From Promethearchaeota archaeon (lineage in GTDB: Archaea > Asgardarchaeota > Lokiarchaeia > Sigyniarchaeales > SOKP01): a stretch of 64,000 nt of DNA. The stretch spans positions 96,001 through 160,000 of the forward strand of contig JAUVNS010000006.1 of assembly GCA_030599585.1 (NCBI GenBank), written 5' to 3'. This document shows, in pieces, positions 4,006 through 23,881 of the stretch. The position numbers and the translations under genes are program-made. Position 1 is the stretch's first letter. Each line of letters begins with the position of its first letter. The notes below the pieces were generated by a model. The model was not told the DNA's origin, searched no databases, and saw nothing but the letters and a program-made list of their open reading frames with translations.

Positions 4006-5088
4006 ATGAGTATCGAAAATTTATTACTCGTGTTATCTACCTCTATAACGGGGACATTAGTAGCAATTGGTGGTATGATTACATTCATTTATGCGTTCAG
4101 AAGAAAAAATCGGCTTATTTTCTTATTTTCCGCAATGTGGTTAATGTATGCTATTTTTTGGTTTGTAGATGCGGCAGCTCATTATTTTTACTCAATACCA
4201 CTAATGGCCTTAGCGATTATTCCACAACTGATAGGAATTCCGTGTATTATCATTTTTATCGAACTTAGCAGAAAAGAGCATGTTAGCCCAATTAAAATTT
4301 CAATACTTATGATTATCGAAGCCTTAGTTTTTATTATAACTTTTTATGTACCTGATAATTGGGAGATCATTCCTGGATATGGAATTCATAACAAAGGCAT
4401 ACTTCGGATAGCGCAGATAATCTTCATCTTTTACTTCATGATTTTTTATTTTTTATGGAGTTTTCATACTTGGCGTAAGGCTCCTGCGGGTTTAAAACGC
4501 TTAACAAGCTATTTACTATTTGGGAGCACTATTTTTTCAATTGTTACAGGGGTAATGTATGCAATTGGGACATTCATAAAAACATTTAATGCCATAGGGT
4601 TCTTCATAAATGGGATAGGAGCGTTCATCACTATTTTAGTTATCTTAAAAGATTCCAGAATTATATATATCTTACCTTTTAAGGCTTATCGAATTTTAGT
4701 GGTTGACACTATAGCAAGCGTAGCCCTATTTAAATACGATTGGGCGAAAGCAGGAGAAGTTGAGGAAAATATCTTTACCATGATGATCCAAGCTATTGGT
4801 AGTGTTCTAGACGACATTTTAAAAAAAGGTGATGTCCAAGAAATCCAAATGGATCGGGCAATCCTTCTTATTAAACACAATAAAGAAAATAATATAGCAT
4901 CGGTTTTGATAGCCTCAAAATTTTCAAAATCGCTGAGATATGGATTGAAAAGGTTTGACGAAGAATTTGTTGGAAGATTTCAAAAAACTTTAGAAAGTTC
5001 AAGAAAAGTTAGTGATTTCGTCGGGGGTTCAAAAATAGTTGAACATGTATTCGATTTTGTTCCAAGTTATAAAAGTGAAATTATATAA
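4006..5088 (+). CDS. 7-transmembrane protein with C-terminal longin-like domain
   Basis: Seven hydrophobic segments in aa 1-215, then a soluble ~135-aa domain with a beta-beta-alpha-beta-beta-beta-alpha-alpha pattern (AYRILVVD...LFKYDW...IFTMMIQAI...EIQMDRAILLIKH...SVLIASK...LRYGLKRFDEEF). Confidence 0.65.
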   Translation: MSIENLLLVLSTSITGTLVAIGGMITFIYAFRRKNRLIFLFSAMWLMYAIFWFVDAAAHYFYSIPLMALAIIPQLIGIPCIIIFIELSRKEHVSPIKISILMIIEALVFIITFYVPDNWEIIPGYGIHNKGILRIAQIIFIFYFMIFYFLWSFHTWRKAPAGLKRLTSYLLFGSTIFSIVTGVMYAIGTFIKTFNAIGFFINGIGAFITILVILKDSRIIYILPFKAYRILVVDTIASVALFKYDWAKAGEVEENIFTMMIQAIGSVLDDILKKGDVQEIQMDRAILLIKHNKENNIASVLIASKFSKSLRYGLKRFDEEFVGRFQKTLESSRKVSDFVGGSKIVEHVFDFVPSYKSEII

Positions 5089-5110
5089 TCAAAAACATAT
5101 TTGAAAAGAG

Positions 5111-6193
5111 GTGAAAATGATTAGTTTTGATAATATTTTATTAGTTTCATCCGCATCAGCTGCAGGTGTGTTAAACATTATTGGATTTTTACTCTCATTC
5201 TCTTACGCGAAAAAAAGAAAAAATCGATTAGTGTATTTATTTTCAGCAAATTGGTTATTACAATCTTTTTTTTGGGGTTTAGACGCAGCTTCGCATCTTT
5301 TTTATTCACCCTTATTAATGGCTCTTGCAATAATACCGCAAGTCATTGGGGTTCCCTGCCTATTTATATTTATAGACCTCATTAAAAAAGAACGCGTGAG
5401 TTCATTTAAGATCACTATTGTCCTTCTAATTGAGATTACTCTGCTATACTTCACTTTTACGCCTGGAGGTATGCAAATTATACCTGATTATGGTATCCAT
5501 ATTGTTGGAACTCTTCGAATTGTCCAAATTATTTTCCTCTTTTACTATGTATTAACCTATTTTAGTTGGAGTTACCTCACTTGGAAAAGAGCTCCGAGGG
5601 AATTAAAGCAACTCGTTAACTTTTTATTGTTTGGTAGTATCCTTTTTTCGTTTGTAACGGCAACCTTGTACTTTTTAGGAACATTTATTAAAATATTCAA
5701 TTCTTTAGGGTTCATAACTCATAGCTTAGGAGCATTATTTACGATTATAGTTATATGGAAAGAACCTAAAGTCATTTATATACTTCCCTTTAAAGCCTAT
5801 AGACTTTTGGTTGTTGAGACGAATGCAGGTATTGGATTATTTAAACACGATTGGGCAAAACTGAGAGCTGTAGACGAGAATGTCTTTACTATGGTACTCC
5901 AAGCAGTGGGTAGCATTTTAGATGAATTATTAAAGAAAGGAGAAATACGGGAAATCAAATTGGATAGAGCAGTTCTTTTAATTCAACACAATAAAGGCTA
6001 TCCAGTTGCATCTGTTTTAGTTACCTCAAAATCATCTAAATCTTTGCGATATGGACTTAAGAAGTTCAATTCTCAGTTTATTGATGAATTCAAGTCTCAT
6101 TTTGGTGGATTGTATGAAGTTAGCAGATTTAAAAAGGCGAAATCGTTAGTGGAGGAATTTTTTGATTTCATACCTGATTATTTAGAAAACTAA
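5111..6193 (+). CDS. 7-transmembrane protein with C-terminal longin-like domain (tandem paralog)
   Basis: Same length (360 aa) and colinear with 4006-5088 (LMALAIIPQ, YILPFKAYR, SKSLRYGLK). Confidence 0.65.
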   Translation: MKMISFDNILLVSSASAAGVLNIIGFLLSFSYAKKRKNRLVYLFSANWLLQSFFWGLDAASHLFYSPLLMALAIIPQVIGVPCLFIFIDLIKKERVSSFKITIVLLIEITLLYFTFTPGGMQIIPDYGIHIVGTLRIVQIIFLFYYVLTYFSWSYLTWKRAPRELKQLVNFLLFGSILFSFVTATLYFLGTFIKIFNSLGFITHSLGALFTIIVIWKEPKVIYILPFKAYRLLVVETNAGIGLFKHDWAKLRAVDENVFTMVLQAVGSILDELLKKGEIREIKLDRAVLLIQHNKGYPVASVLVTSKSSKSLRYGLKKFNSQFIDEFKSHFGGLYEVSRFKKAKSLVEEFFDFIPDYLEN

Positions 6194-6220
6194 TCAATGA
6201 ATTTTGATTATGAAGTTCTT

Positions 6221-6772
6221 TTAAACTGGCATGTCTTTATATTTAACATATAGTTCATCAATAATCGTATTAAATGCGTTAATTACTCCTTGTCCCGATT
6301 TTGCTGAAGTCATAAAGTGTCCTAAGTATTTCTTTTCTTCAACAATTTTTTCGATAGCCAAAGTGTCTATCTTTTCCTCGTCTACCAAATCTACTTTATT
6401 ACCAAAAATTACCACAGGAATATCTCCGCAGTATTTTTCAATATCAGTTGCCCAGTTATGAATATGGTTAAAACTTTCTTTACCATGTTCATTATTTTCA
6501 AGGGTATACACAATTATTGCAGCAACACTATTGTTAAAAAATGAGGGTCGTAAGAAATTAAATGAATCTTGTCCTGCGATGTCCCAGAATAATAACTTTA
6601 TTTTGTCTCCATCGATTTTTCTATCAAATACAGAAAATTGAGCTCCGATTGTTTTGATGTATTCTTCTTTAAAATTATCGTTAGTGAACTTTTGGATTAG
6701 AGATGTCTTACCTACGGCACCATCTCCTATAACAGTAATCTTAAATCTAAATTTTTTGTTAGTTTCACTCAT
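6221..6772 (-). CDS. Rab-like small GTPase (Ras superfamily)
   Basis: G1 GDGAVGKTS, G2 YIKTIG, G3 WDIAGQ, G4 NKVD, G5 TSAK. No C-terminal Cys prenylation motif. Confidence 0.92.
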   Translation of the reverse strand: MSETNKKFRFKITVIGDGAVGKTSLIQKFTNDNFKEEYIKTIGAQFSVFDRKIDGDKIKLLFWDIAGQDSFNFLRPSFFNNSVAAIIVYTLENNEHGKESFNHIHNWATDIEKYCGDIPVVIFGNKVDLVDEEKIDTLAIEKIVEEKKYLGHFMTSAKSGQGVINAFNTIIDELYVKYKDMPV

Positions 6773-7018
6773 TGGTAGCTTTTAAGAATCACATGAAATA
6801 TTTCTTAATATAAAGCTAGGCTTTTAATTAATATAAAGCTTTAGTATTAAATCGGTTTACACTATTTTTTATACTAACAGAAAGTTAAGTTTACGAAATG
6901 TTTATACTACATAATTATAATTGGAGTTCCAGATTTCTTTTAGACCGTAATGTATAAATAAACTATAACACATTATATATTATATCCATAAAGATTTCTT
7001 ACCAGATGATCCTAAGTT

Positions 7019-8929
7019 ATGCCTTCTCCAATAAATTACCCCCCTAAAGAGGTTATAGAACCTATCTTTGGTAAAATTAACTTTGAATTAGTAATACTCT
7101 GGATGCTTAATAACAACGAAGTATGTACGTGGTCGAATTTAAAAAAAAAGATCAAACCTTCAACATTATCGATTTATCTAAAAAAACTTTTGTTGACAGA
7201 GTTAATTGAAAAGAAAGAATTTAATCAATATACGATAACAACAAAAGGGAAAGACAGATTTTATGAACTATCGCAGGCCACGAGACAAAAAAGGAAGTTA
7301 AATTACCCCCCCAAAGCAATTTTGTGGAAACGGAATTACGATCATTGGATATTATGGATGGTTTACAACAATAATTTCTGTAAATGGGGAGATTTACTGA
7401 ACGAACCTCTTTCAATTAATAATTCCTCATTATCTAAAAATATGAATGCCTTAATTGAAGACGGATTTGTCAAGAAAAAAAATAAGGAGTATAGGATTTC
7501 TCAATTGGGTAAAGCTGAATATTCTGTAATGCTGAGGGATTACGATTTAGACCGTCAATCGATTTTGGAAGACGAAAGTAATCGAATCAAAGAAAATACA
7601 ATAAAAACATTGAAATTTTTCAAAAAGTATAGAATAAGTGAAGATGAAACTAGATTTCGATTTCTCAATAACCTTTTGAGATTACCCCACGAAAGAATCA
7701 AGCAATCTTTAAAAAGTGAAGAAGATTTCTTCAAAATACTTCTATATTTATCCCTCAATCATCCATCACATTATCCTATCTCTATTTCAACTGAGAAATT
7801 TGCTAAAAAATATGGGTTAGAATTAGTAGTTCTAGAGTTTCATGTTTTGCAAATTATTGATAAAAAGATTTTCCCTGTTAAATTTTTCAAATTGGAGGGA
7901 GATATTGATAAGATATATTATTTCCAGGCTAATGAAAAGCTTGAAAGGATGTTAAACGCCGTAGTCGAAGAACATATCACAAAATTTACCTACTTAAATA
8001 GATTGTATGAAGAAGATAAAGATAAGACCTACTCAACAACTTTAGAATCTACAATAGATGCGATATTAGACGAAGTTTGCGGTTCACTTTTTCATGAAGG
8101 TCAGCGCTCTTCTTTAAAGAAGTTGTTACCAAGTTATATTGCTTACTTGGCCTACAAAGTGGAAAAAGAGAAAAAGTTGATTGACACTTATGACAAGTTA
8201 AGGGGTTTAATATGGCATGAAGTACAGACCTATAGTTCGAAAAAATATTTACTTCAAGAATTCACAAATTACGACGAGAATATTAAAGAAGTGGATAAAG
8301 CCCTAAGCTTAAATCCTGACCAGTTTGACAGTTATGTTGATAAAGAGCGCGTGTTAATTTACTTTAACAAGTACGATGAATTATTAACATTTTTAGATGA
8401 AATGCTCGAAAAATTCCCCGATGAAGAGAAGGACATCAAAATTAAGGTTGCCTATATTTATAAAGAGAAAAGAAATTTCGAGGAAGGGCTTAAAATTATT
8501 AATGAATTGCTCGAAAAATACTCAGAAGATACCGAACTTCTTACTTATAAAGCTTATTGGTTACAATATTTAAATCGAAAAGAAGAAGCGGTAGAAATAA
8601 TTCAAAACCTAATCGAACAAGACCCTGATAACAACATTTATCATGATACATATGGTGAAATGTTAATGTCCTTCCAAGATTATGAAAATGCCAAAATTGA
8701 GTTCCTCAAAGCCATCGAAATAAGCTCAGACGAATGGTTTACATTCCAAACGCACATCAAGTTAGGGATATGTTATAAAGAACTTGGTAAGTTTAAGTTA
8801 GCACTCGAAAAATTGGAGTCTGGAATTAAATACGCAGAGAATAGTAAATCTGATTTAGAAACAAAAAAAAATTGGCTTGCCATTGCTAATCTCTTTATTG
8901 CTGAAATTGAAGAATCAAAAGAGAATTAA
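7019..8929 (+). CDS. Tandem winged-helix + C-terminal TPR protein
   Basis: Two internal repeats starting NYPP, each with an HTH/wing pattern (STLSIYLKKL...YTITTKG; SSLSKNMNAL...YRISQLG). C-terminal TPRs (YHDTYGEML...AKIEFLKAIE). Confidence 0.7.
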   Translation: MPSPINYPPKEVIEPIFGKINFELVILWMLNNNEVCTWSNLKKKIKPSTLSIYLKKLLLTELIEKKEFNQYTITTKGKDRFYELSQATRQKRKLNYPPKAILWKRNYDHWILWMVYNNNFCKWGDLLNEPLSINNSSLSKNMNALIEDGFVKKKNKEYRISQLGKAEYSVMLRDYDLDRQSILEDESNRIKENTIKTLKFFKKYRISEDETRFRFLNNLLRLPHERIKQSLKSEEDFFKILLYLSLNHPSHYPISISTEKFAKKYGLELVVLEFHVLQIIDKKIFPVKFFKLEGDIDKIYYFQANEKLERMLNAVVEEHITKFTYLNRLYEEDKDKTYSTTLESTIDAILDEVCGSLFHEGQRSSLKKLLPSYIAYLAYKVEKEKKLIDTYDKLRGLIWHEVQTYSSKKYLLQEFTNYDENIKEVDKALSLNPDQFDSYVDKERVLIYFNKYDELLTFLDEMLEKFPDEEKDIKIKVAYIYKEKRNFEEGLKIINELLEKYSEDTELLTYKAYWLQYLNRKEEAVEIIQNLIEQDPDNNIYHDTYGEMLMSFQDYENAKIEFLKAIEISSDEWFTFQTHIKLGICYKELGKFKLALEKLESGIKYAENSKSDLETKKNWLAIANLFIAEIEESKEN

Positions 8930-10644
8930 TGCAATATTGCTCGTTCAATAAATATTTCATTAACCAGGGAATCAAGTGAAGGAATGTCTTTTTCTTGAAC
9001 AAGCCGATTTGCTTGATAATATTTTTTAATAGGTTCCCATATTTTTTTGTCGTTTTGAATGGTATCGATAAAATGCTTTATTCTCTGCAGAGCTAAGAAC
9101 GACTGTCCTTTAAATAGATAACAGACGATAAATGGAGAGACAGCATTCATGATTATCGTATATTCCCCAAAAATAGCACGATCTAATCCTTGAGAGAACA
9201 TTTCATCACTAAAGGAATTAACAGCAGATAAAAAACCTCCAAACAAATGGTCTTGGAATGACCATCCCTCTTCAAACGATTGGGAGAAGATTGGGTTTCC
9301 CCCTTTTGAGATAATTAAAATTACAACAGAATCCTCTTCTTTGACCTCATCTGGTTCAACCACACGTTTTCGAAGCATGTTGTCCATTTGCTCATTTAAC
9401 CGAGCTAATTCCATACGTTCTTTCAATGATGAAGTTGATTTTTTTAAGTTCTCCCACATAGTTAATTGTTTAAGAAGTTCGTCATGTTCGTTAGAAATTT
9501 TGATAGCTAATTGATAAAATCCATATTTTTCTGCTATAATTTGAGCCTGAGTTAAAAATTGGCGAGCTTCTCTGATATTTAAGGATATTAATGCTAATCT
9601 AGCTTGTAATAGATGAGTTTCACACAAAATCCAATATGAGTGCTGTTGCTCAGCAAAATCTAATAACTTTTGAATGTATGGTTGTATCTCGTCAATTATT
9701 TCGGGATAATTAGTAATACGTAATTCAATAAGGAGTAAATCACAAAGATTAATAATAGTAAAAATGTATTTTTTAATCCATAAAAATTTTAGACCACCAC
9801 TAGAAATATCTTTAGTATTAATAATTTCTTTTAATAGTTTTTCAGATTTAACTCGATTTTTTGAACGTAGACTCGTTTTTAATAATATAGCTTTATAATA
9901 TCGATATAAAATGTCGTTTATTTCACTTTTATCTTTTTCTCTAATCTCACTTATCTGTTGGAAGTAACTGTTTGCCCCTTCAATATCACCCTTATCAAGC
10001 AAAATATCAATTATAAATCCTATCGCATATATTAACCAAGGCAGATATTGAATCTCAATAGCACGCTCTGCATACAATTTCGCGTTATCATAATCACCTA
10101 ATAAGCCATATTTTTCAGAAATATTGATAAGACTCGCAGAAATCAGTTCTTTATTTTTACTATCTTTTGCAAGTTCAAAAGCTTCTTTATTAAGTTCTAG
10201 AGAACGATGAATTTCACCTCTCCAGGTACAAATATTAGCTTTTATCCTAACCAAAAAAGATTCGCTTTCTCTTAAATCTAATGTTGCTGTTTCCTTAATT
10301 TTTATAAATAGGTTATCAGCCTTCTTAATTAGATCTTCACCTTCACTTATATTTCCAAGCATTACGTTTGAAAATGATTTGATCAATAAAGCATCTAGAT
10401 AGGTCAATAAATCTCCTTGTTTCTGGCTTTCTTGCATTAATTGATCAGTGTAAATGTTCGCTTCTGAAAACTGCAACGATTTATATAAAAGGTTTGCTTT
10501 AAGGAGTTTATAAAAAAGCATTTCTTTAGTTGTGAAATTCTCCATATTCTTTAAACCTAAAGCGATTTGGTAAGCTTCTTCAATTCGGCCTTCTCTCAAA
10601 AGGTTCTTTGCTTTAGTCAACTCTTTTATTACAGAATGAGACAT
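8926..10644 (-). CDS. TPR-repeat protein with C-terminal longin-like domain
   Basis: Helical TPR repeats, conserved linker (ISNEHDELL...ERMELA), C-terminal 'ILIISKGGNPIF...LFGGFLSAVNSFSDEMF...CYLFKGQS' domain. Confidence 0.75.
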   Translation of the reverse strand: MSHSVIKELTKAKNLLREGRIEEAYQIALGLKNMENFTTKEMLFYKLLKANLLYKSLQFSEANIYTDQLMQESQKQGDLLTYLDALLIKSFSNVMLGNISEGEDLIKKADNLFIKIKETATLDLRESESFLVRIKANICTWRGEIHRSLELNKEAFELAKDSKNKELISASLINISEKYGLLGDYDNAKLYAERAIEIQYLPWLIYAIGFIIDILLDKGDIEGANSYFQQISEIREKDKSEINDILYRYYKAILLKTSLRSKNRVKSEKLLKEIINTKDISSGGLKFLWIKKYIFTIINLCDLLLIELRITNYPEIIDEIQPYIQKLLDFAEQQHSYWILCETHLLQARLALISLNIREARQFLTQAQIIAEKYGFYQLAIKISNEHDELLKQLTMWENLKKSTSSLKERMELARLNEQMDNMLRKRVVEPDEVKEEDSVVILIISKGGNPIFSQSFEEGWSFQDHLFGGFLSAVNSFSDEMFSQGLDRAIFGEYTIIMNAVSPFIVCYLFKGQSFLALQRIKHFIDTIQNDKKIWEPIKKYYQANRLVQEKDIPSLDSLVNEIFIERAILH

Positions 10645-10777
10645 CGCTATAGTGAGTTTGATATATCTTAACTATTTTGTATAAACTTACTACTATTGTT
10701 CTATTATAAGCTAATTGAAATTTTAAATATAATGTAAAATTCCTTTTTTTTGTACAAAATCACATTCTCTCAATAAT

Positions 10778-11098
10778 ATCGAACAATACCCTGATAACAG
10801 CATCTATCATGATACTTACGGAGAAATGTTAATGTCATTTCAGGATTACGAAAGTGCCAAAAATCAGTTCCTCAAAGCTATTGAAATAAATTCTGATGAA
10901 TGGTTTACATTCCAGACTCACATCAAATTAGGCATATGCTATAAAGAACTTGGGAAGCTTAAATTAGCAGTCGAAAGGTTAGATTCAGGAATGAAATACG
11001 CAGGGAAGAGTAAATTAGATTTAGAAACGAAACAAAAATGGTTAATGATTGCGAACCTTTTTAAAGCAGAAATAGCAGAGTTAGAAAGTGGGGATTAG
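10778..11098 (+). pseudogene. 3' remnant of a wHTH-TPR gene (copy of the end of 7019-8929)
   Basis: Translation IEQYPDNSIYHDTYGEMLMSFQDYE... closely matches the last ~105 aa of 7019-8929. Homology stops abruptly at ~10778. Confidence 0.8.
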
Positions 11099-11153
11099 GA
11101 TAGGAGATTCGTCAACTTTAAAGGTTTATTAGAGTAAGTTTTTTAAAAAGATT

Positions 11154-11714
11154 TCATAGTTCTTCTGATAATGCCTTAAATTTATGATAGAGGTTTCCAA
11201 TAATAGCATCAAAGGCTTCAATTACTCCGTCCCCAGTTTTAGCGCTTGTTTTATAAAACCCAAGAAAGTTATACTTATCAACTAATTCTTGGATTTTAGT
11301 ATCATCAGAACTATTTTCATTCACTAAATCTACTTTATTTGCAAAGATAACTATAGGAATCTCACCACAATATTTGGATATATCCGCATACCAATCATCA
11401 ATGTGTTCGAAGCTTTTTGTTCCAAGGTCGTTATCTTCCAGTGAAAATATAATTATTGCTGCCCGACTATTGTTGAAAAAAGAGGATCGTATAAAATTAA
11501 AGTCAACTTGACCAGCTATATCCCAAAATAGCAATTTAATTTTGTCCCCATCAATTTCCTTATCAAATACAGAAAATTGCGCTCCAATAGTCTTAATATA
11601 ATCTTTTCTAAATGCGCCTTTCGTGTATTTTTTAATTAACGACGTTTTACCGACCATTCCGTCGCCTATGACGGTAATCTTAAACCTAAATTTTTTGCCG
11701 ATCTCTTCTGTCAT
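11154..11714 (-). CDS. Rab-like small GTPase (paralog of 6221-6772)
   Basis: GDGMVGKTS, YIKTIG, WDIAGQ, NKVD, TSAK. Confidence 0.92.
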   Translation of the reverse strand: MTEEIGKKFRFKITVIGDGMVGKTSLIKKYTKGAFRKDYIKTIGAQFSVFDKEIDGDKIKLLFWDIAGQVDFNFIRSSFFNNSRAAIIIFSLEDNDLGTKSFEHIDDWYADISKYCGEIPIVIFANKVDLVNENSSDDTKIQELVDKYNFLGFYKTSAKTGDGVIEAFDAIIGNLYHKFKALSEEL

Positions 11715-11883
11715 CTATTTTCTTCGTAGAATGGAAGTTAAGTTCCTAATTTTATTTTGTTATTTTATTAAGATTAGGGTTTTTTTAATATAAAATTACG
11801 CTTTCAAGAAGGAAAATGTAAGGAATTTTACATAATTCTTAAAAATAATTATCAGAACGGTTTATTATGTGATGAGATTTAAG

Positions 11884-13713
11884 TTAGGAATTTATGGTTA
11901 CAAATATATCGTTGAGTAAGGGTTCCATTAACGGAATGTCTTTTAATTCAACTACTTGACTTGATTTTTCGAATTTTTCAAAAGTCTTCCATATCGCGGG
12001 TTCCTTTTGTAGAGTTTCAACAAACTTCTCTAATTTTTGTTTTGCAAAGTATGTCTGCCCTTGGAATAGATAACAAATTGAAAAAGATCCGACAGATTGC
12101 AGAAGAATTGTATCTTCTCCGAATTTAGCTCTATCTAGACCTTGAGAAAAAAATTCATCACTGAACGTTGAAAATGCTGATAAAAAACTTCCAAATAGGT
12201 CGTCATCGCGTTTCCACTTATCAGTAAAAGGATGAGAAAATAAGAGAACACCACCCTCAGCAAGTATTAGCAGTAGTACTGGTTGCTGACCACCTGACTC
12301 AAGTGGCTCAATTGCTCTTTTTCCTTGCATGCGTTCTATTACACCATCGACAGAAGCTAACCTCAGGCGTTCTGCTACGGATGTTTGTTCTTTCTTAATA
12401 GATTCCCAGAGCTTCAATTCTTCCAATAGACGATCGTGTTCTTTTGAGATTTCACCGGCTAAAAGTTTAAGGCCGTGCTCATCTGCTATATTTTGTGCTT
12501 CTGTTAAGAGCTTTCTAGCCTCGACCATGTTAACTTGAAGTAGGGCTAATTTAGCTTTTAACAGTTTTACATTTGCTAACAAAGAATATGAATTCTCAAG
12601 TTTAGCGTTTTTTTGCAGATGATCAATGAGGGGATGAATGTCTTCTAATATTTCTATTTGATTGGATATTCGGAATTCATCAAAATACCAATTACAAAGA
12701 CTGGTTAAAGCTACATTTGTCGTAAATACCGAGATGTCCTTATCGACAATTTTTTTCAAAATATTTTCCGCTTCGACATGATCTCGCAATCGTGGACTCG
12801 ATTTTAAAAAAATCGATTCAGCTAACTGGTGAAACACATAATTGAACTCATCCCTATATTTGTTAGAGAATTGCTTGAATTTCTTAAGATAATTTTGAGC
12901 TTGCTTAATGTTTTTCAGAGCGAGTAAAACATTTATGATGTTAAAATATGCAAAAGCCGTCCACCAACCTAATTTGGATTTCAGATAAATTTCAAGGCTT
13001 GTTGTATGGTATTCTAACGCACGATTCAAATCCCCCTTTTGATGATGCGTACCCCCCATAAGGCGATAAATATCAGCTTTCATCCTCATTGGGAGATCGT
13101 ATTCCATTTTAGGGATTAGAGATAAAACTTTTTCAGTTATATCTAATGAAATCTGTAATTCTCCCTTTACTCCATAGATATATGCCATATAAACCAAAAT
13201 ACCGGTTATTGTACTAGAATGAGGATCAACTTTTTCCAATAATGTTAGACTTTGTTTAAATTCGGCCAAAGAAAGATCCATATTGCCACTATAAAAACTT
13301 CCAGCCCCTTTCGAAAATAAAAATTCTGCTTCTCTTTGCTGAAACTCTATTGTATCTTCTGGTGGAATTAATTTAAACAATTTTTCATGTTGTTCAAGAT
13401 TTATATAAAAATCTTCTCCAATTGCAAAGTTTACTATAATAAGACCTTTAATAAATAAGGCATCAAGTGAAAAAAAAGGCATATTCATTTCTTGACTCTT
13501 TCGGTAAAGTTCTTCAACGATTTTGAGTGCAAATTCTAGTTGTCCTAAACCATGATAGATCAAGCCCTTGAATCGTTGAATTATTAATGACTCTTCAGGG
13601 ATGGGAGTTTTATTTTGCTCTATTTCATTAATCCGTTGAATTCCTTCTTCATACTTACCTTTATCAATTAACTCTTTTATAAGTGCCAGTTTTTTGGATA
13701 CAGAAATAGACAT
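11884..13713 (-). CDS. TPR-repeat protein with C-terminal longin-like domain
   Basis: TPRs (HHQKGDLNRALEYH), KGD/ISKEHD motifs, C-terminal LLLILAEGGVLLF...LFGSFLSAFSTF...CYLFQGQ. Confidence 0.75.
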   Translation of the reverse strand: MSISVSKKLALIKELIDKGKYEEGIQRINEIEQNKTPIPEESLIIQRFKGLIYHGLGQLEFALKIVEELYRKSQEMNMPFFSLDALFIKGLIIVNFAIGEDFYINLEQHEKLFKLIPPEDTIEFQQREAEFLFSKGAGSFYSGNMDLSLAEFKQSLTLLEKVDPHSSTITGILVYMAYIYGVKGELQISLDITEKVLSLIPKMEYDLPMRMKADIYRLMGGTHHQKGDLNRALEYHTTSLEIYLKSKLGWWTAFAYFNIINVLLALKNIKQAQNYLKKFKQFSNKYRDEFNYVFHQLAESIFLKSSPRLRDHVEAENILKKIVDKDISVFTTNVALTSLCNWYFDEFRISNQIEILEDIHPLIDHLQKNAKLENSYSLLANVKLLKAKLALLQVNMVEARKLLTEAQNIADEHGLKLLAGEISKEHDRLLEELKLWESIKKEQTSVAERLRLASVDGVIERMQGKRAIEPLESGGQQPVLLLILAEGGVLLFSHPFTDKWKRDDDLFGSFLSAFSTFSDEFFSQGLDRAKFGEDTILLQSVGSFSICYLFQGQTYFAKQKLEKFVETLQKEPAIWKTFEKFEKSSQVVELKDIPLMEPLLNDIFVTINS

Positions 13714-13748
13714 TATAGAACTTCTTTACCTAATTGAATTTAAAAAAA

Positions 13749-15640: not shown

Positions 15641-15675
15641 TTTACACCCTTTTTGCAAAATCGTAGTTAAAAAAT

Positions 15676-15708
15676 AGGAAGATTAGTTTCCTTAAAAGTA
15701 TTTGCCAC
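15676..15708 (-). promoter_or_regulatory. Conserved promoter element copy 2 (AGGAA-N7-TTCCT + TATA-like box)
   Basis: aggaagattagtttccttaaaagtatttgccac. Confidence 0.55.
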
Positions 15709-15743: not shown

Positions 15744-17558
15744 TCAGCTTATAAAAATCTCGTTTACTGCACTTCCGAGAGAGGGTGGATTATTTAATTC
15801 CAACATTTCACTAGTTTTGACTGCTCTATTTAACGCCTCCCAAATCTCTGTTGTAGCTTTAATGGCATCTGAAAATCGAGTTAGCTTCTGCTGGGCGGGA
15901 TAGGATTGCCCTTTTATAATATAACAGGCTAGAAATGGCTCAATTGGGTTGATGAGGATTGTATTTTCACCAATTTTAATTCTGTCAATCGATTTGGAGA
16001 AGATCTCGCCACTAAATGAGTTGAATGCAGACATAAAAGAGCTAAAAAGATCGTCAAAATCCCAATCACCAATAAAAGAGTGATTGAAGTAGGTTACTCC
16101 GCTCTTATCCATGATTAAAAGGAGTATCGGTTCTTCAATATTCGCCTCTGGCACCTCAATTGCGCGTCTCCCTTGTAAACGCTTCATAACATCATCAATT
16201 GAAGCCAACTTTATGCGTTCTGATACGGGTGTTTGCGTTTTTTTAAAAGATTCCCATTGTTTCAATTCATCCAACAAAAGATCGTGTTCTTTCGAAATTG
16301 CACCCGCTAAAAGTTGAAGGTCGTGTTCATCGGCTATAAGTTGGGCTTCGGTTAAGAGTTTTCTTGCTTCAAGTAAATTTATTTGAAGTAATGCCAATTT
16401 AGCTTGAAACAATTTTGTGTTAGCTAAAAATAGAAATGAATTTGTTTCTCTAGCATTTCTTTGTAAATGATCGATAAGTGGATGAATATCGTCCAATATG
16501 TCCATCTGATTAGAGATTCGAAATTCTTCGAAATACCAATCACAGAGGTTCATTAACGCAAAATTGGTTAAAAAAATAAAACTACTTTCTTCTACAATTT
16601 TCTTCAATATAGTTTCTGCTTCAACACGGTCACGCATTCTTGAACTAGATTTTAATACTAAAGCGGTTGCCAATGGATATAAGTTGTTACTCAACCAATC
16701 CTCAACATTTTCCTTACTATATTGTTTGAACTCCTTCAGATAATTCTGTGCTAGAGTAAATTCCTTTTTAGTGAGTAATACTTGTATTATGTGAAGGTAT
16801 GACCAAGCCATCCACATTGAACCCCCCACTTTCATGTATATATCGAGAGCACGCTTTTGGTCCTCCAAAGCGTTATTTAAATCCCCTTTTTCCTGATATA
16901 TGACTCCGATAACTCGGTAAATATTAGCTTTATTAACCAAATAATATTCTCCTTTGGGATTAGAAGATAGAGCTTTTTCAGCATATTCTAAAGCAAGTTT
17001 TAGTTCTCCTTTCGCAAGATAGATAAAGGGCAGAAGCTCTGAAGGACTGAATGAGCTAGAACTATGAGTATGTCCCTGTTCTTGCAGAATTAAACTTTTG
17101 TTACAGTAGTCTAAAGCTAGATCAAAATTACCGGATACATAATTTTGATATCCTTTTTGTAACAGTAATTCTGCTTCTCTTTCTTGAAATTCGGGCGAAT
17201 TTTCTCGTGGAATTGATTTAAATAGATTTTCGTGTTGTTGAAAACTTTTGTACGATTCTTCAAATTCTTGAAGATTGTACAAAATCCACGCTTTAATGAC
17301 TAGTGCATCTAACGAAAAGAGAGGCATTTTCTTTTCCTGACTCTTTTGGTATAGTTCTTCAGTGAACTTGAGAGCATTCTTGTATTGTCCTGAATTGTAA
17401 TAAAGGTCGGCTTTATGAAACAGAGTTCTTAATGTTTCTTTATGAGTGAGATTTTCCATCTGTTCAATATCCTTAACAATTTGAAGAGCATCTTCAATTT
17501 TGCCTTCTCGCATGATCTCTTTGACAAGTGTTAATTTTTTGGAAGCGGAATTGGACAT
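15744..17558 (-). CDS. TPR-repeat protein with C-terminal longin-like domain
   Basis: Paralog whose C-terminal domain is nearly identical to that of 13817-15640. Confidence 0.75.
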   Translation of the reverse strand: MSNSASKKLTLVKEIMREGKIEDALQIVKDIEQMENLTHKETLRTLFHKADLYYNSGQYKNALKFTEELYQKSQEKKMPLFSLDALVIKAWILYNLQEFEESYKSFQQHENLFKSIPRENSPEFQEREAELLLQKGYQNYVSGNFDLALDYCNKSLILQEQGHTHSSSSFSPSELLPFIYLAKGELKLALEYAEKALSSNPKGEYYLVNKANIYRVIGVIYQEKGDLNNALEDQKRALDIYMKVGGSMWMAWSYLHIIQVLLTKKEFTLAQNYLKEFKQYSKENVEDWLSNNLYPLATALVLKSSSRMRDRVEAETILKKIVEESSFIFLTNFALMNLCDWYFEEFRISNQMDILDDIHPLIDHLQRNARETNSFLFLANTKLFQAKLALLQINLLEARKLLTEAQLIADEHDLQLLAGAISKEHDLLLDELKQWESFKKTQTPVSERIKLASIDDVMKRLQGRRAIEVPEANIEEPILLLIMDKSGVTYFNHSFIGDWDFDDLFSSFMSAFNSFSGEIFSKSIDRIKIGENTILINPIEPFLACYIIKGQSYPAQQKLTRFSDAIKATTEIWEALNRAVKTSEMLELNNPPSLGSAVNEIFIS

Positions 17559-17592
17559 TTTACACCCTTTTACTTAATTGTATTTAAAAAAT

Positions 17593-17625
17593 AGGAACAT
17601 TGGTTTCCTTAAAAGTGTTTGTTAC
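17593..17625 (-). promoter_or_regulatory. Conserved promoter element copy 3
   Basis: aggaacattggtttccttaaaagtgtttgttac. Confidence 0.55.
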
Positions 17626-17815: not shown

Positions 17816-19006
17816 TTAGAGTGCTTCATAAATTGCAGAAATAATTTGGTTGGCTCTTGAATCCTGGGCGAATTTATTTTTTCTAGACTCTTCAGGTGCC
17901 TGAAGTCTCAACTTGTTCATTACATATGAGATGCTCAATTTTGCATCCATGTCCATTATACAAACGCTACCACCCCAACCTCCCCAATAGAGAGTGTTGG
18001 GATTTTTAATGGGCTGAATATTACTCGGAAGACCAAATCCCGTCCCGTAACGAATTCCGTCAATAAACACGTATCCTTGTCCGTTAAACTGTTCTTTTAA
18101 TGCTTCATTAAGAGTGTTTTGCGAAAGAAGGTGCACATTATCAATATCACCACCACATGAAATTGCTGATGCTATTCTTGCTACCGATCTTGCATTTGCG
18201 AAACCGTTCGTCGCAGGTAAATCAAATTTACGGAAAGCTTTTGAGTTACAAAATTTCACGAATTCTTTTGTCATATCCCCACCAAAGGTCCATCCACAGG
18301 GAATACCGAGTATTTTGTAAATTATTGAATCTCTTTCCAGCAAATCATTAAATGGTATATCTGGTGGTATTAAATCCGCCACGCGTTTTTCATGACCATT
18401 TGAAATTCCTATCATGAAATCGGCACCTAAAAGGTGTGCAATATTATCATTAAAGACAGTACTAAGGGTTTTACCCGTGACTCTTTTTACAAGTTCTCCC
18501 AGGATAAAACCAAAAGTAAATGCATGATACCCACCCATCGTTCCTGGTTCCCACCAAGGCTTCTGTTTTTCCAAAAGTTTTATCATTTTTTCCCAATTCA
18601 AGAAATCTTTCAGAGGGAAATCCTCATCCCAGCTTGGTATACCCGCAGTATGACCAAGTACATGTTTGATGAGTATTTTTTCCTTACCATTTTGCCCGAA
18701 TTCCGGCCAATACTTACTTACAGGGTCATTAATATCTAAAAATCCTTGCTCAGAAAGCATTAGAATACAAATTGATGACATTATCTTTGTCGTAGAAAAC
18801 ACGCAGACAATTGTATCTTCATCCCACGATCGCGTTTTAGCTGCATCAGCCCAACCTGCCCAGATATCTATCACGAATTTTCCATTTAAAGTCACAGCTA
18901 GAGATGCTCCAAATTCGTCAAATTGTTCAAAATTTTTCGCAAAAACATCTTGGACTACTTTAAATTGTGGATTGCAGAATCCCTTTATTTTGATCCCCTT
19001 TGACAT
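17816..19006 (-). CDS. Serine hydrolase, beta-lactamase class C / esterase family VIII
   Basis: SxxK (FSTTK), LGHTAG, PWWEPGT..GYHA, WGGWGGS. Confidence 0.9.
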   Translation of the reverse strand: MSKGIKIKGFCNPQFKVVQDVFAKNFEQFDEFGASLAVTLNGKFVIDIWAGWADAAKTRSWDEDTIVCVFSTTKIMSSICILMLSEQGFLDINDPVSKYWPEFGQNGKEKILIKHVLGHTAGIPSWDEDFPLKDFLNWEKMIKLLEKQKPWWEPGTMGGYHAFTFGFILGELVKRVTGKTLSTVFNDNIAHLLGADFMIGISNGHEKRVADLIPPDIPFNDLLERDSIIYKILGIPCGWTFGGDMTKEFVKFCNSKAFRKFDLPATNGFANARSVARIASAISCGGDIDNVHLLSQNTLNEALKEQFNGQGYVFIDGIRYGTGFGLPSNIQPIKNPNTLYWGGWGGSVCIMDMDAKLSISYVMNKLRLQAPEESRKNKFAQDSRANQIISAIYEAL

Positions 19007-19234: not shown

Positions 19235-19343
19235 AGTGAGATTTTCCATTACTTCAATATCCTTAACAAGTTGAAGAACATCTTCAATTTTTTCTTCTTT
19301 CATGAGTTCTTTCATAAGTGTGAGCTTTTTGTCTACGGAATTG
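19235..19343 (-). pseudogene. 5' remnant of a TPR-longin gene lacking its start codon
   Basis: Translates as NSVDKKLTLMKELMKEEKIEDVLQLVKDIEVMENLT, versus NSASKKLTLVKEIMREGKIEDALQIVKDIEQMENLT in 15744-17558. The ATG and RBS are deleted and a stop follows shortly after. Confidence 0.8.
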
Positions 19344-19355
19344 CAGTTAAAAAAT

Positions 19356-19388
19356 AGGAAGATTAGTTTCCTTAAAAGTGTTTGCTAC
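19356..19388 (-). promoter_or_regulatory. Conserved promoter element copy 4 (upstream of the remnant)
   Basis: aggaagattagtttccttaaaagtgtttgctac. Confidence 0.55.
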
Positions 19389-19697: not shown

Positions 19698-19869
19698 TTT
19701 TTTTTCACTTTTATGTTTTTTTTATTTATAATTTTAATATTATAATATTGCATATATAGTTTAGTTTGATGAAGTCCATGTGGAGTCTTGGAATAACTAT
19801 GGATAACAAAGTATAAATAGATTTTAAGATTATACTATATCAAAGATCACTAAATAAGGAGTACTAAGT

Positions 19870-21816
19870 GTGGTTTCTGCATGCAATTATCCTCCTGAAG
19901 AGATTATTAAACCTATTTTTGGTAAGCCGAACTACGAATTCATTATATTGTGGATTTTGAACAATAATCAGGTATGTACTTGGGCAAACCTAAAAGAAAA
20001 AATTACGCATTCTACCTTATCGAACTACCTAACCCGGCTTAAAGATAGAGGGTACATTGAAAAAAGAGCATATAACCAGTATAAAATTACTTCTAGAGGT
20101 AGGGATAGGTTTTACGAGCTCTCCGAAGCCAAGCAAGAAAAGAGAAAGTTAAGTTACCCTCCCGACGCTATACTTAGAAGGAGGAATTATGACCATTGGG
20201 TTCTGTGGATGGTGTCTAACAACAATTATTGCAAGTGGTCAGATTTTTCTGAGCCTCCTCTTTCGATCAATCAATCTTCTTTATCTAAAAATCTCAATTC
20301 ATTAATAGATAAAGAATTTATAAAAAAAGAAGAAAAAGAATATAGAATAACTCGATTAGGGAAAACTGAATACTCAATTATGTTAAGACTATATGATTTA
20401 GATCGACAATCAATATTAGAGGAAGAAAGTAAACGACTTAAAGAAATAACGCAAAGCACCTCAAGTTTTTTTAACGAATATAAAATAAAAGATAGTGATA
20501 TTAAATTCCGGTTTCTAAATAATAAATTAAACTTACCATTTGAAAAGGTCGAATCCACTTTAGACAGTGAAGAGAATTATGATAAGGTGTTATTATATCT
20601 GTCTGTAAACCATCCAGACCGATTTCCGGATTACATTTCTCCAGAGGAGTTTTCTAAAAAGTACGACATCAATTTGGTTAAACTTAACTTTGTCATTCTT
20701 CGAATCGTTGAAGAAAATATCTTTCCAGTAAAATTTTTTAACTTAGATTTAGACGATGGGAAGATGTATTACTTTCATGTAAATGAAAGGCTGGAGCGGA
20801 TGCTTGATGTAATTGTTGAAGATCACATTACAAAATTCACCTACTTAAACAGTTTAGAGGAAGTAGAGGGAGTTTCCGCTCCGCTAACTATAGAAAGTAT
20901 TGTTAATACAATTTTAGAAGAAATAATTGATAATTTATTTGATCCAAGTTTAAAGCCAGCTTTAAGAACATTCCTTCCACATTACATTAACTGGTTGGCA
21001 TACAAACTTGAAAAAGAAAGAAAACTACTTGATACATTTGACAAATTGGAAGGATTAATCTGGAGAGAAATCCAGAATTTAAATATTAATGAAGAAAAGG
21101 AGCAAACTGATATGCAAGCTGAGCTGAATTATTATATAGATCCCGCGAAGAGTTATGAAGAAGCTTTAGAAGAAATTGATAAAGCGATTGATCGAAAACC
21201 TAAAGAAATTGATTTGTATTATATTAAAAGCAAGATTCTAATATATTATGATAAATACAATGACGCTTTAATCTTGCTAGATGGAATGGTAAAAGACTTT
21301 CCTAAAGATGAAAAATATCTCAAAATGAAAAAAGCATCTATTCTTAAAAGAATGAGAAATCTTGAGGGGGGTTTTGAAATTATAGAAGAATTAATTAAAA
21401 AATACCCTGAAGACAACGATCTTCTCAATTATAAAGCGCTTTGGTACCAATATTTAAATAAAAAGGATAATGCTTTAGAAATCATCCAAGATCTCATAGA
21501 GCGAGAACCAGATAATGGAATATATCACGATTCATATGGTGAAATTCTTCTAGCCTTTAATGAACATAAGTTAGCTATAGAAGAATTTCTAAAAGCAATA
21601 GAGCTGGATCCAAATAGTTGGTATGTTTATCAAACTTATGTTAAACTAGGAATTTGTTATCGAGAACTGGAAGAATATAAGTTAGCACTTGAGCATTTAA
21701 CGAAAGGCGAAGAGCTTATAGAACAATCTCCAAGCGATAATGATACAAAACAGATGTGGCACTCTTATGCTCAACCCTTTATCGAAGAGACTAAGGTGCT
21801 TCTTGAAGATTTTTAA
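19870..21816 (+). CDS. Tandem winged-helix + TPR protein (paralog of 7019-8929)
   Basis: Colinear motifs NYPP, VCTW.NLK, RNYDHW, YDLDRQSILE, HITKFTYLN, YHDSYGE. Confidence 0.7.
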   Translation: MVSACNYPPEEIIKPIFGKPNYEFIILWILNNNQVCTWANLKEKITHSTLSNYLTRLKDRGYIEKRAYNQYKITSRGRDRFYELSEAKQEKRKLSYPPDAILRRRNYDHWVLWMVSNNNYCKWSDFSEPPLSINQSSLSKNLNSLIDKEFIKKEEKEYRITRLGKTEYSIMLRLYDLDRQSILEEESKRLKEITQSTSSFFNEYKIKDSDIKFRFLNNKLNLPFEKVESTLDSEENYDKVLLYLSVNHPDRFPDYISPEEFSKKYDINLVKLNFVILRIVEENIFPVKFFNLDLDDGKMYYFHVNERLERMLDVIVEDHITKFTYLNSLEEVEGVSAPLTIESIVNTILEEIIDNLFDPSLKPALRTFLPHYINWLAYKLEKERKLLDTFDKLEGLIWREIQNLNINEEKEQTDMQAELNYYIDPAKSYEEALEEIDKAIDRKPKEIDLYYIKSKILIYYDKYNDALILLDGMVKDFPKDEKYLKMKKASILKRMRNLEGGFEIIEELIKKYPEDNDLLNYKALWYQYLNKKDNALEIIQDLIEREPDNGIYHDSYGEILLAFNEHKLAIEEFLKAIELDPNSWYVYQTYVKLGICYRELEEYKLALEHLTKGEELIEQSPSDNDTKQMWHSYAQPFIEETKVLLEDF

Positions 21817-21919
21817 GTAATGCAATTTAGGAAAGGAGAGAACACTTTAAATTTAGCGATTGATGATATGACAAGAATTAAAAAGATAATCTCATCATAA
21901 ATACTGATTCGATTGCTTT

Positions 21920-23881
21920 CTAATGAAAAATCTCTTTTATTAACGGTCCAAGTGACGGGACATTTTTTAATTGTACTACTCGACACGCCTGATTAAATTT
22001 ATTAAAAGTTTTCCATATGTTTTCATCCTTCTTAAAATTATCAATAAAGCTTTTGAGTTTCTGCTGGGCTAAATATGATTGACCTTTAAATAAATAACAT
22101 ACTAAAAAAGGAGAAATTGAATCCATAATGATAGTATACTCCCCAAAATTAGCTCGATTAAGGCCCTCAGAAAATACTTCAACACTAAACGAATTTACGG
22201 CGGTTAGAAAACCTCCAAAAAGGTTTTCTTCAAATGACCATTCTTCCACAAATGATTCTGAAAATACAGGGCTTCCATCTTTTGAAATAATTAAAAGTAT
22301 GATAGGTTCTTCATCATGTAAATCAGGAAGTTCTAACTCTCGTTTTCGAACCATTTGCCCCATTTGTTTGTTTAAACGAGCTAATTCCATGCGTTCGGCC
22401 AATGATATATCTGAAGCTTCTAAGTTCTCCCACATGTTTAACTCTTTAAGTAATTCATCATGGTCATTCGAGATTTTTCTAGCCAATAAATCGAGTCCAA
22501 ATTTCTCTGCTATTTGTTGTCCTTGAGTTAGCAATCGTCGAGCTTCTTTCAAATCTAATGATAATAAAGCCAATTTAGCTTGTAAAAGGTAAGTTTCTCC
22601 CATAATCCAGTGTGAATGCGATTTTTCAGCAATTTCTAATAACTGACCAATATATTGTTTTAACTCATCCAACACCCCCTGATCATTAGTTATGCGTAAC
22701 TCAGTTAGGAGCAATTCACATAAGTTAAGTAATACTGTATACTTACTTTCAAAATCTAAATTTTCATCTTCAAGGAACTGCGTATATATCTCTTCAGCTT
22801 TGCCTCGATCACGAGCCCTAAGACTTGCTTTCAACACCAAAGCTTTATTATGAAGATATGCTAAATTAATATCTTCGTCTTTTAATTGATTTTTCATTTG
22901 TTCCATTTCATGAAGAGAAATCTGTGCTCGCTCAAGATCACCTTTATCAATTAAAATTTGAATTAAATAATGGTAATTATCAGCTAGCCAAGTTAATTTT
23001 CCCAACTCACGATGTAGTGCCATGGATTGTCCTATACACTCCAATGCTCGTTCAAGTTCTCCTCCCATCCTATAGGCGTCAGATACATTGTTAAGAACCC
23101 ATGCCAACCTATCTTTATTGTTAAGCTCCTTGAAAAGTACTAAACTTTGTTCGTAATTTCTAATACCTCGATCTAAATCACCTTTAGCGTGAAATAATTG
23201 CCCTAGAAACTTAAAGCTAGAAGCAATGTAATATTTTTTCCTACTTTCTTTAGCAAGAACTAAACTTCGCTTGGCATATTTTAAAGCACGATTCAGTTCA
23301 CCTATAATTAAGCGAGTCCATGCCATCTCACCAAGGACTTCGGCAATTTCATGCTTAATCCCCAATTCTTCTCGCAATGCTAAGCTGTGCTCCAAGTATT
23401 TTAACGCAAGATCTGCGTTTTTCGGGGTTCTTCCTCCTCTTCTACTGCAAAGAAATCCTTTTATAAAAGCTAAATAAGCCTCTCTTTGCTTGTAGGCTTT
23501 TGTTAATTTTTGCGGAATAGTTTTTATTAGTTCTTCTCCTTGTTTAATCAAATCAAAAGCTTCAGCAAATTTATTAAGCATTGCTAATGCATGTGTCATT
23601 ATAAGTAAGCTGTCGACTTTAAGGAAAATGTTTTCTAGTCTTCTGCTTTCTTTATAAATTTGCTCAGCGAGTTTAATAAGCTCTTTGAGCTTCCCTTGCC
23701 AAAATAGAATTTTACATTGAAGTAGATGACAGGATGCTTTATCATGATGGTTGAGCCCTTCTTTCTGCTCGTAATTATTCAAGAGTGTGAGAGCCTCATC
23801 AAGCTTACCTTCATCAATGAGACTATTTACTTTACTCAATTCTTCAGGTTTTTTGCCTTCTATTACTGGTTGATCCGTCAT
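21920..23881 (-). CDS. TPR-repeat protein with C-terminal longin-like domain
   Basis: TPR_12-like repeats (KGDLDRGIRNYEQSL), ISNDHDELL, LFGGFLTAVNSF, CYLFKGQS. Confidence 0.75.
   Translation of the reverse strand: MTDQPVIEGKKPEELSKVNSLIDEGKLDEALTLLNNYEQKEGLNHHDKASCHLLQCKILFWQGKLKELIKLAEQIYKESRRLENIFLKVDSLLIMTHALAMLNKFAEAFDLIKQGEELIKTIPQKLTKAYKQREAYLAFIKGFLCSRRGGRTPKNADLALKYLEHSLALREELGIKHEIAEVLGEMAWTRLIIGELNRALKYAKRSLVLAKESRKKYYIASSFKFLGQLFHAKGDLDRGIRNYEQSLVLFKELNNKDRLAWVLNNVSDAYRMGGELERALECIGQSMALHRELGKLTWLADNYHYLIQILIDKGDLERAQISLHEMEQMKNQLKDEDINLAYLHNKALVLKASLRARDRGKAEEIYTQFLEDENLDFESKYTVLLNLCELLLTELRITNDQGVLDELKQYIGQLLEIAEKSHSHWIMGETYLLQAKLALLSLDLKEARRLLTQGQQIAEKFGLDLLARKISNDHDELLKELNMWENLEASDISLAERMELARLNKQMGQMVRKRELELPDLHDEEPIILLIISKDGSPVFSESFVEEWSFEENLFGGFLTAVNSFSVEVFSEGLNRANFGEYTIIMDSISPFLVCYLFKGQSYLAQQKLKSFIDNFKKDENIWKTFNKFNQACRVVQLKNVPSLGPLIKEIFH

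Follow-up and report, generated by a model that had tools for sequence, protein, structure and literature searches.

The 64,000-nt window analysed here, part of contig JAUVNS010000006.1 (C21 below) of a 4.85 Mb Promethearchaeota archaeon assembly, carries at positions 4006-23881 an island of genes which, in our estimation, has an even chance of being a lineage-specific small-GTPase signalling module of one Lokiarchaeia family, expanded by duplication. Its core would be a Rab-like GTPase and a winged-helix protein with tetratricopeptide repeats (TPR), accompanied by longin-domain accessories that set the state of the GTPase and, through it, that of the winged-helix protein. The complete receptor-to-gene pathway, in which 7TM-longin heterodimers or TPR-longin sensors would act through the Rab-like GTPase on a GTPase-gated transcription factor at clade-specific operators, is a bolder proposal that we put forward tentatively and consider rather doubtful.

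Four paralogous families make up nearly all of the genes of the island, as determined from open reading frames (ORFs), Pfam matches and all-against-all BLAST. These are two proteins with seven transmembrane helices and a longin domain (7TM-longin; TM), two Rab-like GTPases (G), two double winged-helix-TPR proteins (WT) and five TPR-longin proteins (TL); two remnants and one unrelated esterase gene complete the set. The original prediction for this DNA had described just such an island of four families and two remnants, and the gene content bears it out. We write G* for the GTPase subfamily of G1 and G2, whose members are 55% or more identical.

Linkage of the gene families across genomes

The linkage survey took WT genes as its starting points. 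Searching by pattern with the WT alignment gave 305 relatives, and the best 76 loci, examined with 10-kb flanks, hold 100 WT genes from other genomes. A G* gene adjoins 70 of these, 51 divergently and 26 convergently, seven WT genes having G* on both sides, and lies within 3 kb of 78. A TL gene, by comparison, is found within 5 kb of only 38 WT genes and a TM pair at only 10, where the order is always TM, TM, G* on the opposite strand, WT. The conserved core is therefore the G*/WT gene pair, and the longin proteins are optional, interchangeable accessories. The pairwise distances of adjacent WT and G* are correlated (Mantel r 0.61, reached by none of 2000 permutations), which indicates that the pair duplicates and diverges as a unit.

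The same picture is obtained within this genome, where only five of the approximately 56 small-GTPase matches are G* and four of these five have a WT gene, a TL gene or a WT remnant as neighbour. Further linked sets occur on contig C20 (WT, TL, G*) and on C21 near 260 kb (WT, then G*), together with solitary copies of each family; in the C20 copy, small ORFs between the WT, TL and G genes yielded nothing informative. It had been anticipated that the families would co-localise in other Asgard genomes, and in the neighbourhood survey they do. What did not survive is the notion of a single obligatory four-family unit: the predicted folds (see below) and the gene linkage hold, with the GTPase and the winged-helix-TPR protein alone as the core.

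About 15 kb of the island is a lineage-specific expansion. In sibling genomes TM-TM-G-WT is followed directly by a thiolase gene, with no TL at the locus. Window positions 3681-8930 are 92% identical to genome G069, and the alignment continues at 85% over 24014-29727; G069 has nothing that corresponds to the 15 kb between, which hold TL1-TL5, G2, WT2 and the hydrolase. In G073 the orthologues of G2 and WT2 are an adjacent divergent pair, and here they are separated by 8 kb containing TL2-TL4, the hydrolase and a TL remnant.

Two genera have retained the TM genes in tandem, in keeping with a heterodimer of TM1 and TM2. The pair stands directly beside G* in genus g1, while its orthologue in g2 precedes a Rag/Gtr1-like GTPase (Pfam 2.5e-25). 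The latter is 321-326 amino acids (aa) in length (L032:4356-5321 and L034:3514-4494). A 75%-identical orthologue of this Rag-like protein is present on another contig of our genome (C32:9426-10388), not near any TM gene, and no Rag-like remnant was found beside TM1/TM2 in the window.

The families differ in their distribution. Full-length WT is confined to one GTDB family of the class, where 38 of 40 genomes have it, at up to seven matches per genome; outside that family, matches to WT cover the TPR part only. The TL-type longin domain is far older, occurring in 106 of 201 Asgard genomes of many families with up to 19 copies and in tandem arrays, and the 7TM-longin superfamily was detected in 133 of the 151 genomes of the class.

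The GTPases, the winged-helix proteins and the longin domains

The nearest solved relatives of G1 are Rab21, Rab8A and Rab1A (E ~1e-28), and the best 60 PDB sequences are all Rab/Ypt. Across 100 members G* retains the GDGxVGKT P-loop, the switch I Thr (TIGAQF), WDIAGQ, NKxD and SAK, confirming the earlier assignment of these GTPases as Rab-like; the domain is of the Ras-superfamily G type, with motifs G1-G5 and the catalytic Gln in place. Judged by eye against the RabF motifs, IGAQF stands for IGVDF and WDIAGQ for WDTAGQE. Only one member in 100 has a Cys among its last six residues, that is, the C-terminal prenylation motif is lacking, and for this reason we refer to G* as Rab-like and not as true Rabs. 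Intact G motifs combined with the near-absence of a C-terminal Cys suggest that G* is a competent, unanchored Rab-like switch. Some longer proteins contain G*-like domains as well: in P0271-P0291 a domain 50-64% identical to G1 is fused behind a degenerate GTPase-like domain that has no P-loop, in forms of ~660 aa a G*-like domain lies behind CDC48 N-terminal domains, and some forms of ~700 aa consist of two G* in tandem.

WT2 matches three winged-helix models above their Pfam cut-offs, namely HTH_45 (37.3 bits; cut-off 25.5), HTH_34 (31.0; 27) and MarR (27.7; 24.6), and its C-terminal third matches TPR models; the match to the Sso10a-family winged helix (2.5e-9) is under the cut-off of that model. 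WT1 matches TPR and scores just under the cut-offs of HTH_34, HTH_45 and MarR. In the family alignment the winged helix-turn-helix signature occurs twice at the N-terminus. A PDB profile search with the WT alignment returned TPR proteins only, and the ESM Atlas gave weak leads from the N-terminal half to archaeal winged-helix proteins (score 0.85-0.87).

Neither TM1 nor TM2 has a Pfam match. An AlphaFold2 model of TM1, built from 34 homologues (mean predicted local distance difference test score, pLDDT, 84.8), shows seven long helices with pLDDT above 90 followed by a C-terminal beta-beta-alpha-beta-beta-beta-alpha-alpha domain, for which DSSP gives E227-234, E239-245, H251-271, E278-281, E286-292, E297-303, H308-329 and H339-348. 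The C-terminus of TL5 (residues 512-653), modelled likewise, gives E14-22, E27-32, H37-61, E65-68, E71-78, E81-88, H91-107 and H109-120. Both domains have the longin order, a five-stranded sheet without an N-terminal helix, in which respect roadblock differs. The top Foldseek matches of the TM1 domain are all longins (VAMP7, AP sigma, TRAPP subunits, Sec22b), and the best structural matches of the longin domains as a whole are Synbindin/TRAPPC4, Sec22b, AP sigma, Fuzzy and the Mon1-Ccz1 chains, the whole domain being matched to solved longin structures. Longin folds had been proposed for both types of C-terminal domain, and the models together with these matches agree with that proposal. Sequence kinship between the TM and TL domains is weak and in register (hhalign 67%, E 5e-5); with respect to the curated Pfam longin families, they are separate sequence families inside the fold.

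All of the K/R-rich loops of TM1 (RRKNR, SRKEH, WRK..LKR and KDSR) lie on the longin side of the membrane, from which we conclude that the N-terminus is outside and the longin domain cytoplasmic. With seven helices in the model, the predicted topology of a 7TM protein carrying a cytoplasmic longin is thereby substantiated. Invariant or near-invariant polar residues of TM1 (D55, H59, Y62, Y125, G126, H128, R134 and Q137, within residues 55-63 and 125-137) group around the outer ends of helices 2 and 5 and in an external beta-hairpin, possibly forming a pocket for a ligand or metal. By structure, the helix bundle is matched best by alkaline ceramidase 3.

TL1-TL5 (572-653 aa) are 31-60% identical among themselves and consist of MalT-like TPR and a C-terminal domain of ~140 aa. 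Among the paralogues the longin domain is 45-59% identical and the TPR part 27-32%, a pattern that would fit a variable sensor joined to a constant output. The longin domain is found in a few unusual architectures, with TPR, with one TIR and with one CN-hydrolase. The TIR protein (P0264; 735 aa) has its TIR domain ahead of the longin domain, and in P0205 (626 aa), which may be a gene-call fusion, the longin domain precedes a carbon-nitrogen hydrolase domain. A TL-type TPR protein in which a terminal RING-type zinc finger replaces the longin (L065:4821-6341, also L067, L110 and L111) adjoins WT genes at four loci.

Promoter elements and candidate operators

The layout upstream of WT genes is constant: a ATATATAGTTT-like box, a palindrome and a TATA box (AAGTATAAATAGA) lie about 60-80 nt before the start. 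The palindrome differs from clade to clade. Four of its forms are ACTCCAATTGGAGT, AACTCTAATTAGAGTT, AACTTC-N4-GAAGTT and ATAGTTCCGAACTAT; that of the WT2 clade is GGAGTCTTGGA, with a partial inverted half-site ahead of it, and that of the WT1 clade is TTGGAGTTCCA. A class E motif is found in eight of the 10 members of the WT1 clade. The best palindrome scores at least 10 in 14.8% of 88 WT upstream regions vs 1.6% of 512 controls (Mann-Whitney p 1e-5). On the WT tree the motif classes require 21 changes, as compared to 48.9 when shuffled, and in the 20-kb loci 55 of the 66 occurrences of the clade motifs are upstream of WT genes.

The full WT promoter layout of ~75 nt is repeated upstream of TM1, with a candidate WT site at 3697-3721. 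The 11-mer GGAGTCTTGGA has only two copies in the 4.85 Mb genome, one in the WT2 promoter and the other ~295 nt upstream of TM1, and in sibling genomes this upstream element is kept at the same distance from the TM1 orthologues. The clade palindromes at a fixed promoter position, together with the WT-type site upstream of TM1, support the view that WT would bind DNA, regulate its own gene and act on the TM operon as well. The winged-helix-TPR proteins had been proposed as the transcriptional output; clade-specific palindromes at a fixed position in the WT promoter are what would be predicted for DNA-binding autoregulators. Between the promoter copy and the start of TM1 lie ~250 nt (3753-4005) in which the stretch AGAGCGGTTCTTTTAGT... 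is kept in sibling genomes, which may point to a long leader or a small transcript.

In every clade the G* promoters carry one common element, AAATCTAATCTTA, about 8-10 nt after the TATA box, which shows no co-variation with the WT clades and may represent an initiator, a leader or the site of a common regulator. TL genes have a promoter block of their own, 35 nt in length, that is common to TL2 (13740-13774), TL3 (15667-15701), TL4 (17584-17618) and the TL remnant (19347-19381) and includes AGGAA-N7-TTCCT, an inverted repeat that is degenerate at TL2; in other genomes the TL genes of one clade are preceded by a related block, CTTTTAAG...TTCTTCTTTT.

Possible mechanism, alternatives and related systems

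Beside the computed folds, motifs, linkage, co-divergence and operator-like sites, we infer protein contacts, an activity as guanine nucleotide exchange factor (GEF) or GTPase-activating protein (GAP), binding of WT to DNA and the direction in which the signal runs. WT would most likely bind the clade-specific palindrome at its own promoter and the equivalent site before the 7TM pair. TM1 and TM2 probably form a longin heterodimer at the membrane that would report an external or membrane signal, and the variable TPR parts of the TL proteins might report different cytoplasmic cues. The longin domains could then provide G* with a platform for docking, GEF or GAP action and so determine its nucleotide state; G*-GTP would bind the TPR part of WT and change its DNA binding, and WT would shift transcription, with feedback on the module's own genes and on other targets. 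The docking, the binding of G*-GTP to WT and the transcription steps are modelled on the known roles of longin platforms and of TPR effectors.

Several results weigh against such a module. The surveyed loci are related and not independent, and their counts overstate the evidence. No Rosetta-stone fusion of G* to WT, TL or TM was found, the longer relatives of G1 being only pseudoGTPase-G* and CDC48_N-G*, and among the architectures of the TL longin domain there is no fusion to a GTPase. No TM or TL protein matches Pfam Longin, Sybindin, Sedlin_N or Clat_adaptor_s at E <= 0.1. In distant Asgard lineages a GTPase adjoins two of 20 TL loci. At 28 loci of the wider 7TM-longin family a GTPase is adjacent at about two and within 6 kb at seven, which by a rough estimate is near chance for ~56 GTPase genes per genome. 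We have accordingly rejected, on these two sets of loci, any general rule that TPR-longin genes across Asgard or 7TM-longin genes stand beside a GTPase; the link to a GTPase is specific to the family-level module and to the tandem-pair TM subfamily. Part of the clustering of motifs on the WT tree is simple inheritance. The WT clade motifs, finally, are upstream of none of 13 convergent partner G* genes and of one of 31 TL genes, so that these motifs lend no support to control of G* and TL by WT, and the presence of a WT motif in convergent G* promoters and in TL promoters was rejected.

The alternative that we take most seriously, and to which we would allow a modest chance, is that the regulator comes first. 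In such a scheme WT would be an ordinary local transcription factor that detects a ligand or peptide through its TPR, like the HTH-TPR quorum regulators, and switches on the adjacent G* gene; G* and the longins would act on membranes, shape or polarity, in the manner of Rab/TRAPP or MglA/MglB, and not on transcription. Divergent WT-G* pairs (51 of 100), with a palindrome in the intergenic region that they share, are arranged in the classical manner of a local regulator and its target, and most of what is known of longin and roadblock platforms concerns membrane traffic and polarity (PMC10933270). Against it stand the 26 convergent pairs, whose G* promoters are without the WT motif, the single AAATCTAATCTTA element found in G* promoters regardless of the WT clade, and the lack of a lipid anchor on G*. 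The convergent layouts and the uniform G* promoter element weigh somewhat against this alternative.

The original prediction had envisaged mixed heterodimers of TM and TL longins switching the GTPases. The two longins are distantly related in sequence and both occur beside G*, and in one distant genome (L047) a TL gene has three TM-like genes at a distance of 2.3 kb. TM and TL are, however, seldom found together: the sibling TM-TM-G-WT loci have no TL, 32 of 33 TL-bearing loci have no TM gene (L077 is the exception), and two genomes scored 100% complete (G015 and G033) have WT and no TL-type longin at E <= 1e-8. From this TM and TL look like alternative longin partners, and the tandem TM pair of two genera points instead to a TM1/TM2 dimer. 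An obligatory 7TM x TPR longin heterodimer is contradicted by these loci, and we regard mixed heterodimers as improbable.

A conflict or immunity-type system, in which fast-duplicating TPR sensors are joined to a constant signalling domain in the manner of innate-immunity-like sensors, is also quite improbable. The tandem array TL2-TL4, a row of five in G009:C33, the remnants, the variable TPR part with its conserved C-terminus, the TIR domain of P0264 ahead of the same longin and the TPR-RING variant in the TL position at some loci would be in keeping with it. PADLOC, however, gave only a generic winged-helix match, for WT2, and none for TM, G or TL, by which a known anti-phage defence system was rejected; the island encodes no nuclease or other effector domain, the flanking genes are housekeeping genes, and the family is near-universal in its clade, not patchy. 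That the genes are neighbours only through shared descent and local duplication is very improbable, since, for all that many surveyed genomes are close relatives in which peptidase M3, radical SAM, SET-domain and HpaB genes, rejected as parts of the module, recur through synteny, G*-WT recurs in divergent and convergent form, with or without TL/TM, in several paralogous copies per genome at unrelated sites, the TM pair stands beside two different GTPase families in two genera, and a WT-type site lies upstream of TM1.

A GTPase module built on the G*/WT pair shares parts or logic with each of the nearest known systems and the defining features of none. Eukaryotes employ longin platforms for small GTPases in the TRAPP core (Bet5/Trs23; TRAPPC1/C4), Mon1-Ccz1, Fuzzy-Inturned, FLCN-FNIP and the NPRL2/3 subunits of GATOR1. 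The fold, the Rab-like partner gene and the heterodimer suggested by the TM1/TM2 tandem pair are the same; the island longins, in contrast, are fused to a 7TM bundle or a TPR scaffold and have no match to a curated family profile, the host has no known endomembranes, and G* has no prenylation site. Lysosomal membrane sensors control Rag regulators, as in SLC38A9-Ragulator-Rag and GPR155/LYCHOS-GATOR1. There, as proposed for the island, a longin/roadblock GTPase switch engages the cytoplasmic part of a multi-pass membrane protein, and in genus g2 the GTPase that follows the TM pair is itself Rag/Gtr1-like; the island differs in that the longin is built into the membrane protein, a TOR kinase is absent and the partner here is Rab-like.

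Regulators combining helix-turn-helix (HTH) and TPR are represented by PlcR/NprR/Rgg, and STAND regulators by MalT and AfsR. They resemble the WT proteins in joining a DNA-binding domain to TPR, TL and some WT regions matching the MalT-like TPR model, and in the association of a P-loop NTPase switch with the regulator. WT, unlike these, has two MarR/HTH_45-type winged helices in place of an XRE-type HTH or a LuxR-type domain, and the island has its NTPase as a stand-alone Rab-like protein in place of a fused STAND ATPase.

MglA, the GTPase of the MglA/MglB polarity switch of Myxococcus, has TPR proteins as effectors. It is under the control of a roadblock/longin-superfamily dimer, MglB (PMC10933270), and has no lipid anchor, in which it resembles G*; G* is Rab-like and not MglA-like, the module has no stand-alone roadblock gene, and it has a winged-helix partner. 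The actinobacterial conservons CvnA-D are four-gene operons encoding a histidine-kinase-like sensor, a roadblock protein, CvnC and an MglA-like GTPase (PMC13343842, PMC13621833). They have no dedicated winged-helix-TPR partner, and the island in turn has no conservon domains by Pfam, no counterpart of CvnC and a Rab-like GTPase. Liu et al. catalogue numerous Asgard families of longin/roadblock proteins and GTPases, together with an operon of another kind (LAMTOR1-like/Rab-like/DENN). No description of this module was found in the searchable literature, although single families of it may carry asCOG numbers.

Asgard genomes encode dozens of small GTPases and longin/roadblock proteins with unexplained partners and roles. 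The module is an exception, with one GTPase subfamily tied to longins, a membrane protein, a partner of DNA-binding type and candidate DNA sites, and it offers a concrete, testable set of partners for one of the many unexplained "eukaryote-like" GTPases. Should the GTPase indeed control the regulator, archaea would have a type of small-GTPase signalling that has not been described in them, with a bearing on the roles of longin/GTPase switches before endomembranes existed; if the complete pathway is correct, such switches would have served signal transduction before membrane traffic.

Gene map and further observations

The features of the island and its promoters are listed below.

Table 1. Genes, remnants and promoter elements of the island (window coordinates)
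Feature	Position	Strand	Description
WT-type promoter copy upstream of TM1	3672-3752	+	ATATTTAGTTT box, imperfect palindrome ACTTCAATTGGAGT, CTTGGA, TATA-like run
TM1	4006-5088	+	360 aa; seven-helix membrane protein with C-terminal cytoplasmic longin domain (residues ~226-354)
TM2	5111-6193	+	360 aa; paralogue of TM1, 55% identical
G1	6221-6772	-	183 aa; Rab-like small GTPase; Pfam Ras 1e-41
G1 promoter element	6804-6840		shared with G* genes in L058-L133
WT1 upstream element	6919-6934	+	AATTGGAGTTCCAGAT; G1/WT1 intergenic region; 18 nt before TATA box 6952-6963
WT1	7019-8929	+	636 aa; two N-terminal winged helices, middle domain, C-terminal TPR
TL1	8926-10644	-	TPR and C-terminal longin domain; convergent with WT1, 4-nt overlap
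WT remnant	10772-11080	+	last ~103 codons and native stop; 5' part gone
G2	11154-11714	-	186 aa; Pfam Ras 3e-38; 64% identical to G1
G2 promoter element	11767-11795		shared with G* genes in L058-L133
TL2	11884-13713	-	TPR-longin; same strand as and directly upstream of G2
TL3	13817-15658	-	TPR-longin; ATG at 15640 is the likelier start
TL4	15744-17558	-	TPR-longin; 60% identical to TL3
Serine hydrolase	17816-19006	-	beta-lactamase fold; Pfam Beta-lactamase 1.5e-61; in none of the four families
TL remnant	19235-19381	-	TL-type promoter (19347-19381) and first ~37 codons (19235-19345), then stop codons
WT2 upstream element	19771-19792	+	GAAGTCCATGTGGAGTCTTGGA; TATA box 19811-19822
WT2	19870-21816	+	648 aa; double winged-helix and TPR; 54% identical to WT1
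TL5	21920-23881	-	TPR-longin; convergent with WT2

G1 is convergent with TM2, their ends being 27 nt apart, and divergent from WT1. The WT remnant is 81% identical to WT1 residues 530-632 by tblastn. All-against-all BLAST revealed no more copies of the families in the rest of the window, and Rfam gave no match over window positions 1-26000. The island is flanked by genes of CoA metabolism (methylmalonyl-CoA mutase, thiolases and an aminotransferase).

The hydrolase inside the TL array looks like unrelated cargo of the 15-kb expansion; the nearest NCBIfam model is esterase LipL, with a score far under its cut-off. Homologues of the island proteins are from Promethearchaeota/Lokiarchaeota metagenome-assembled genomes, which bears out the Asgard origin assumed in the original prediction. 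An entry labelled 'Candidatus Nanopelagicaceae bacterium' (L089; DATKTW010000167.1) has an Asgard TM-TM-WT locus with 87-93% protein identity to the window, and its bacterial label is probably a binning or naming error.

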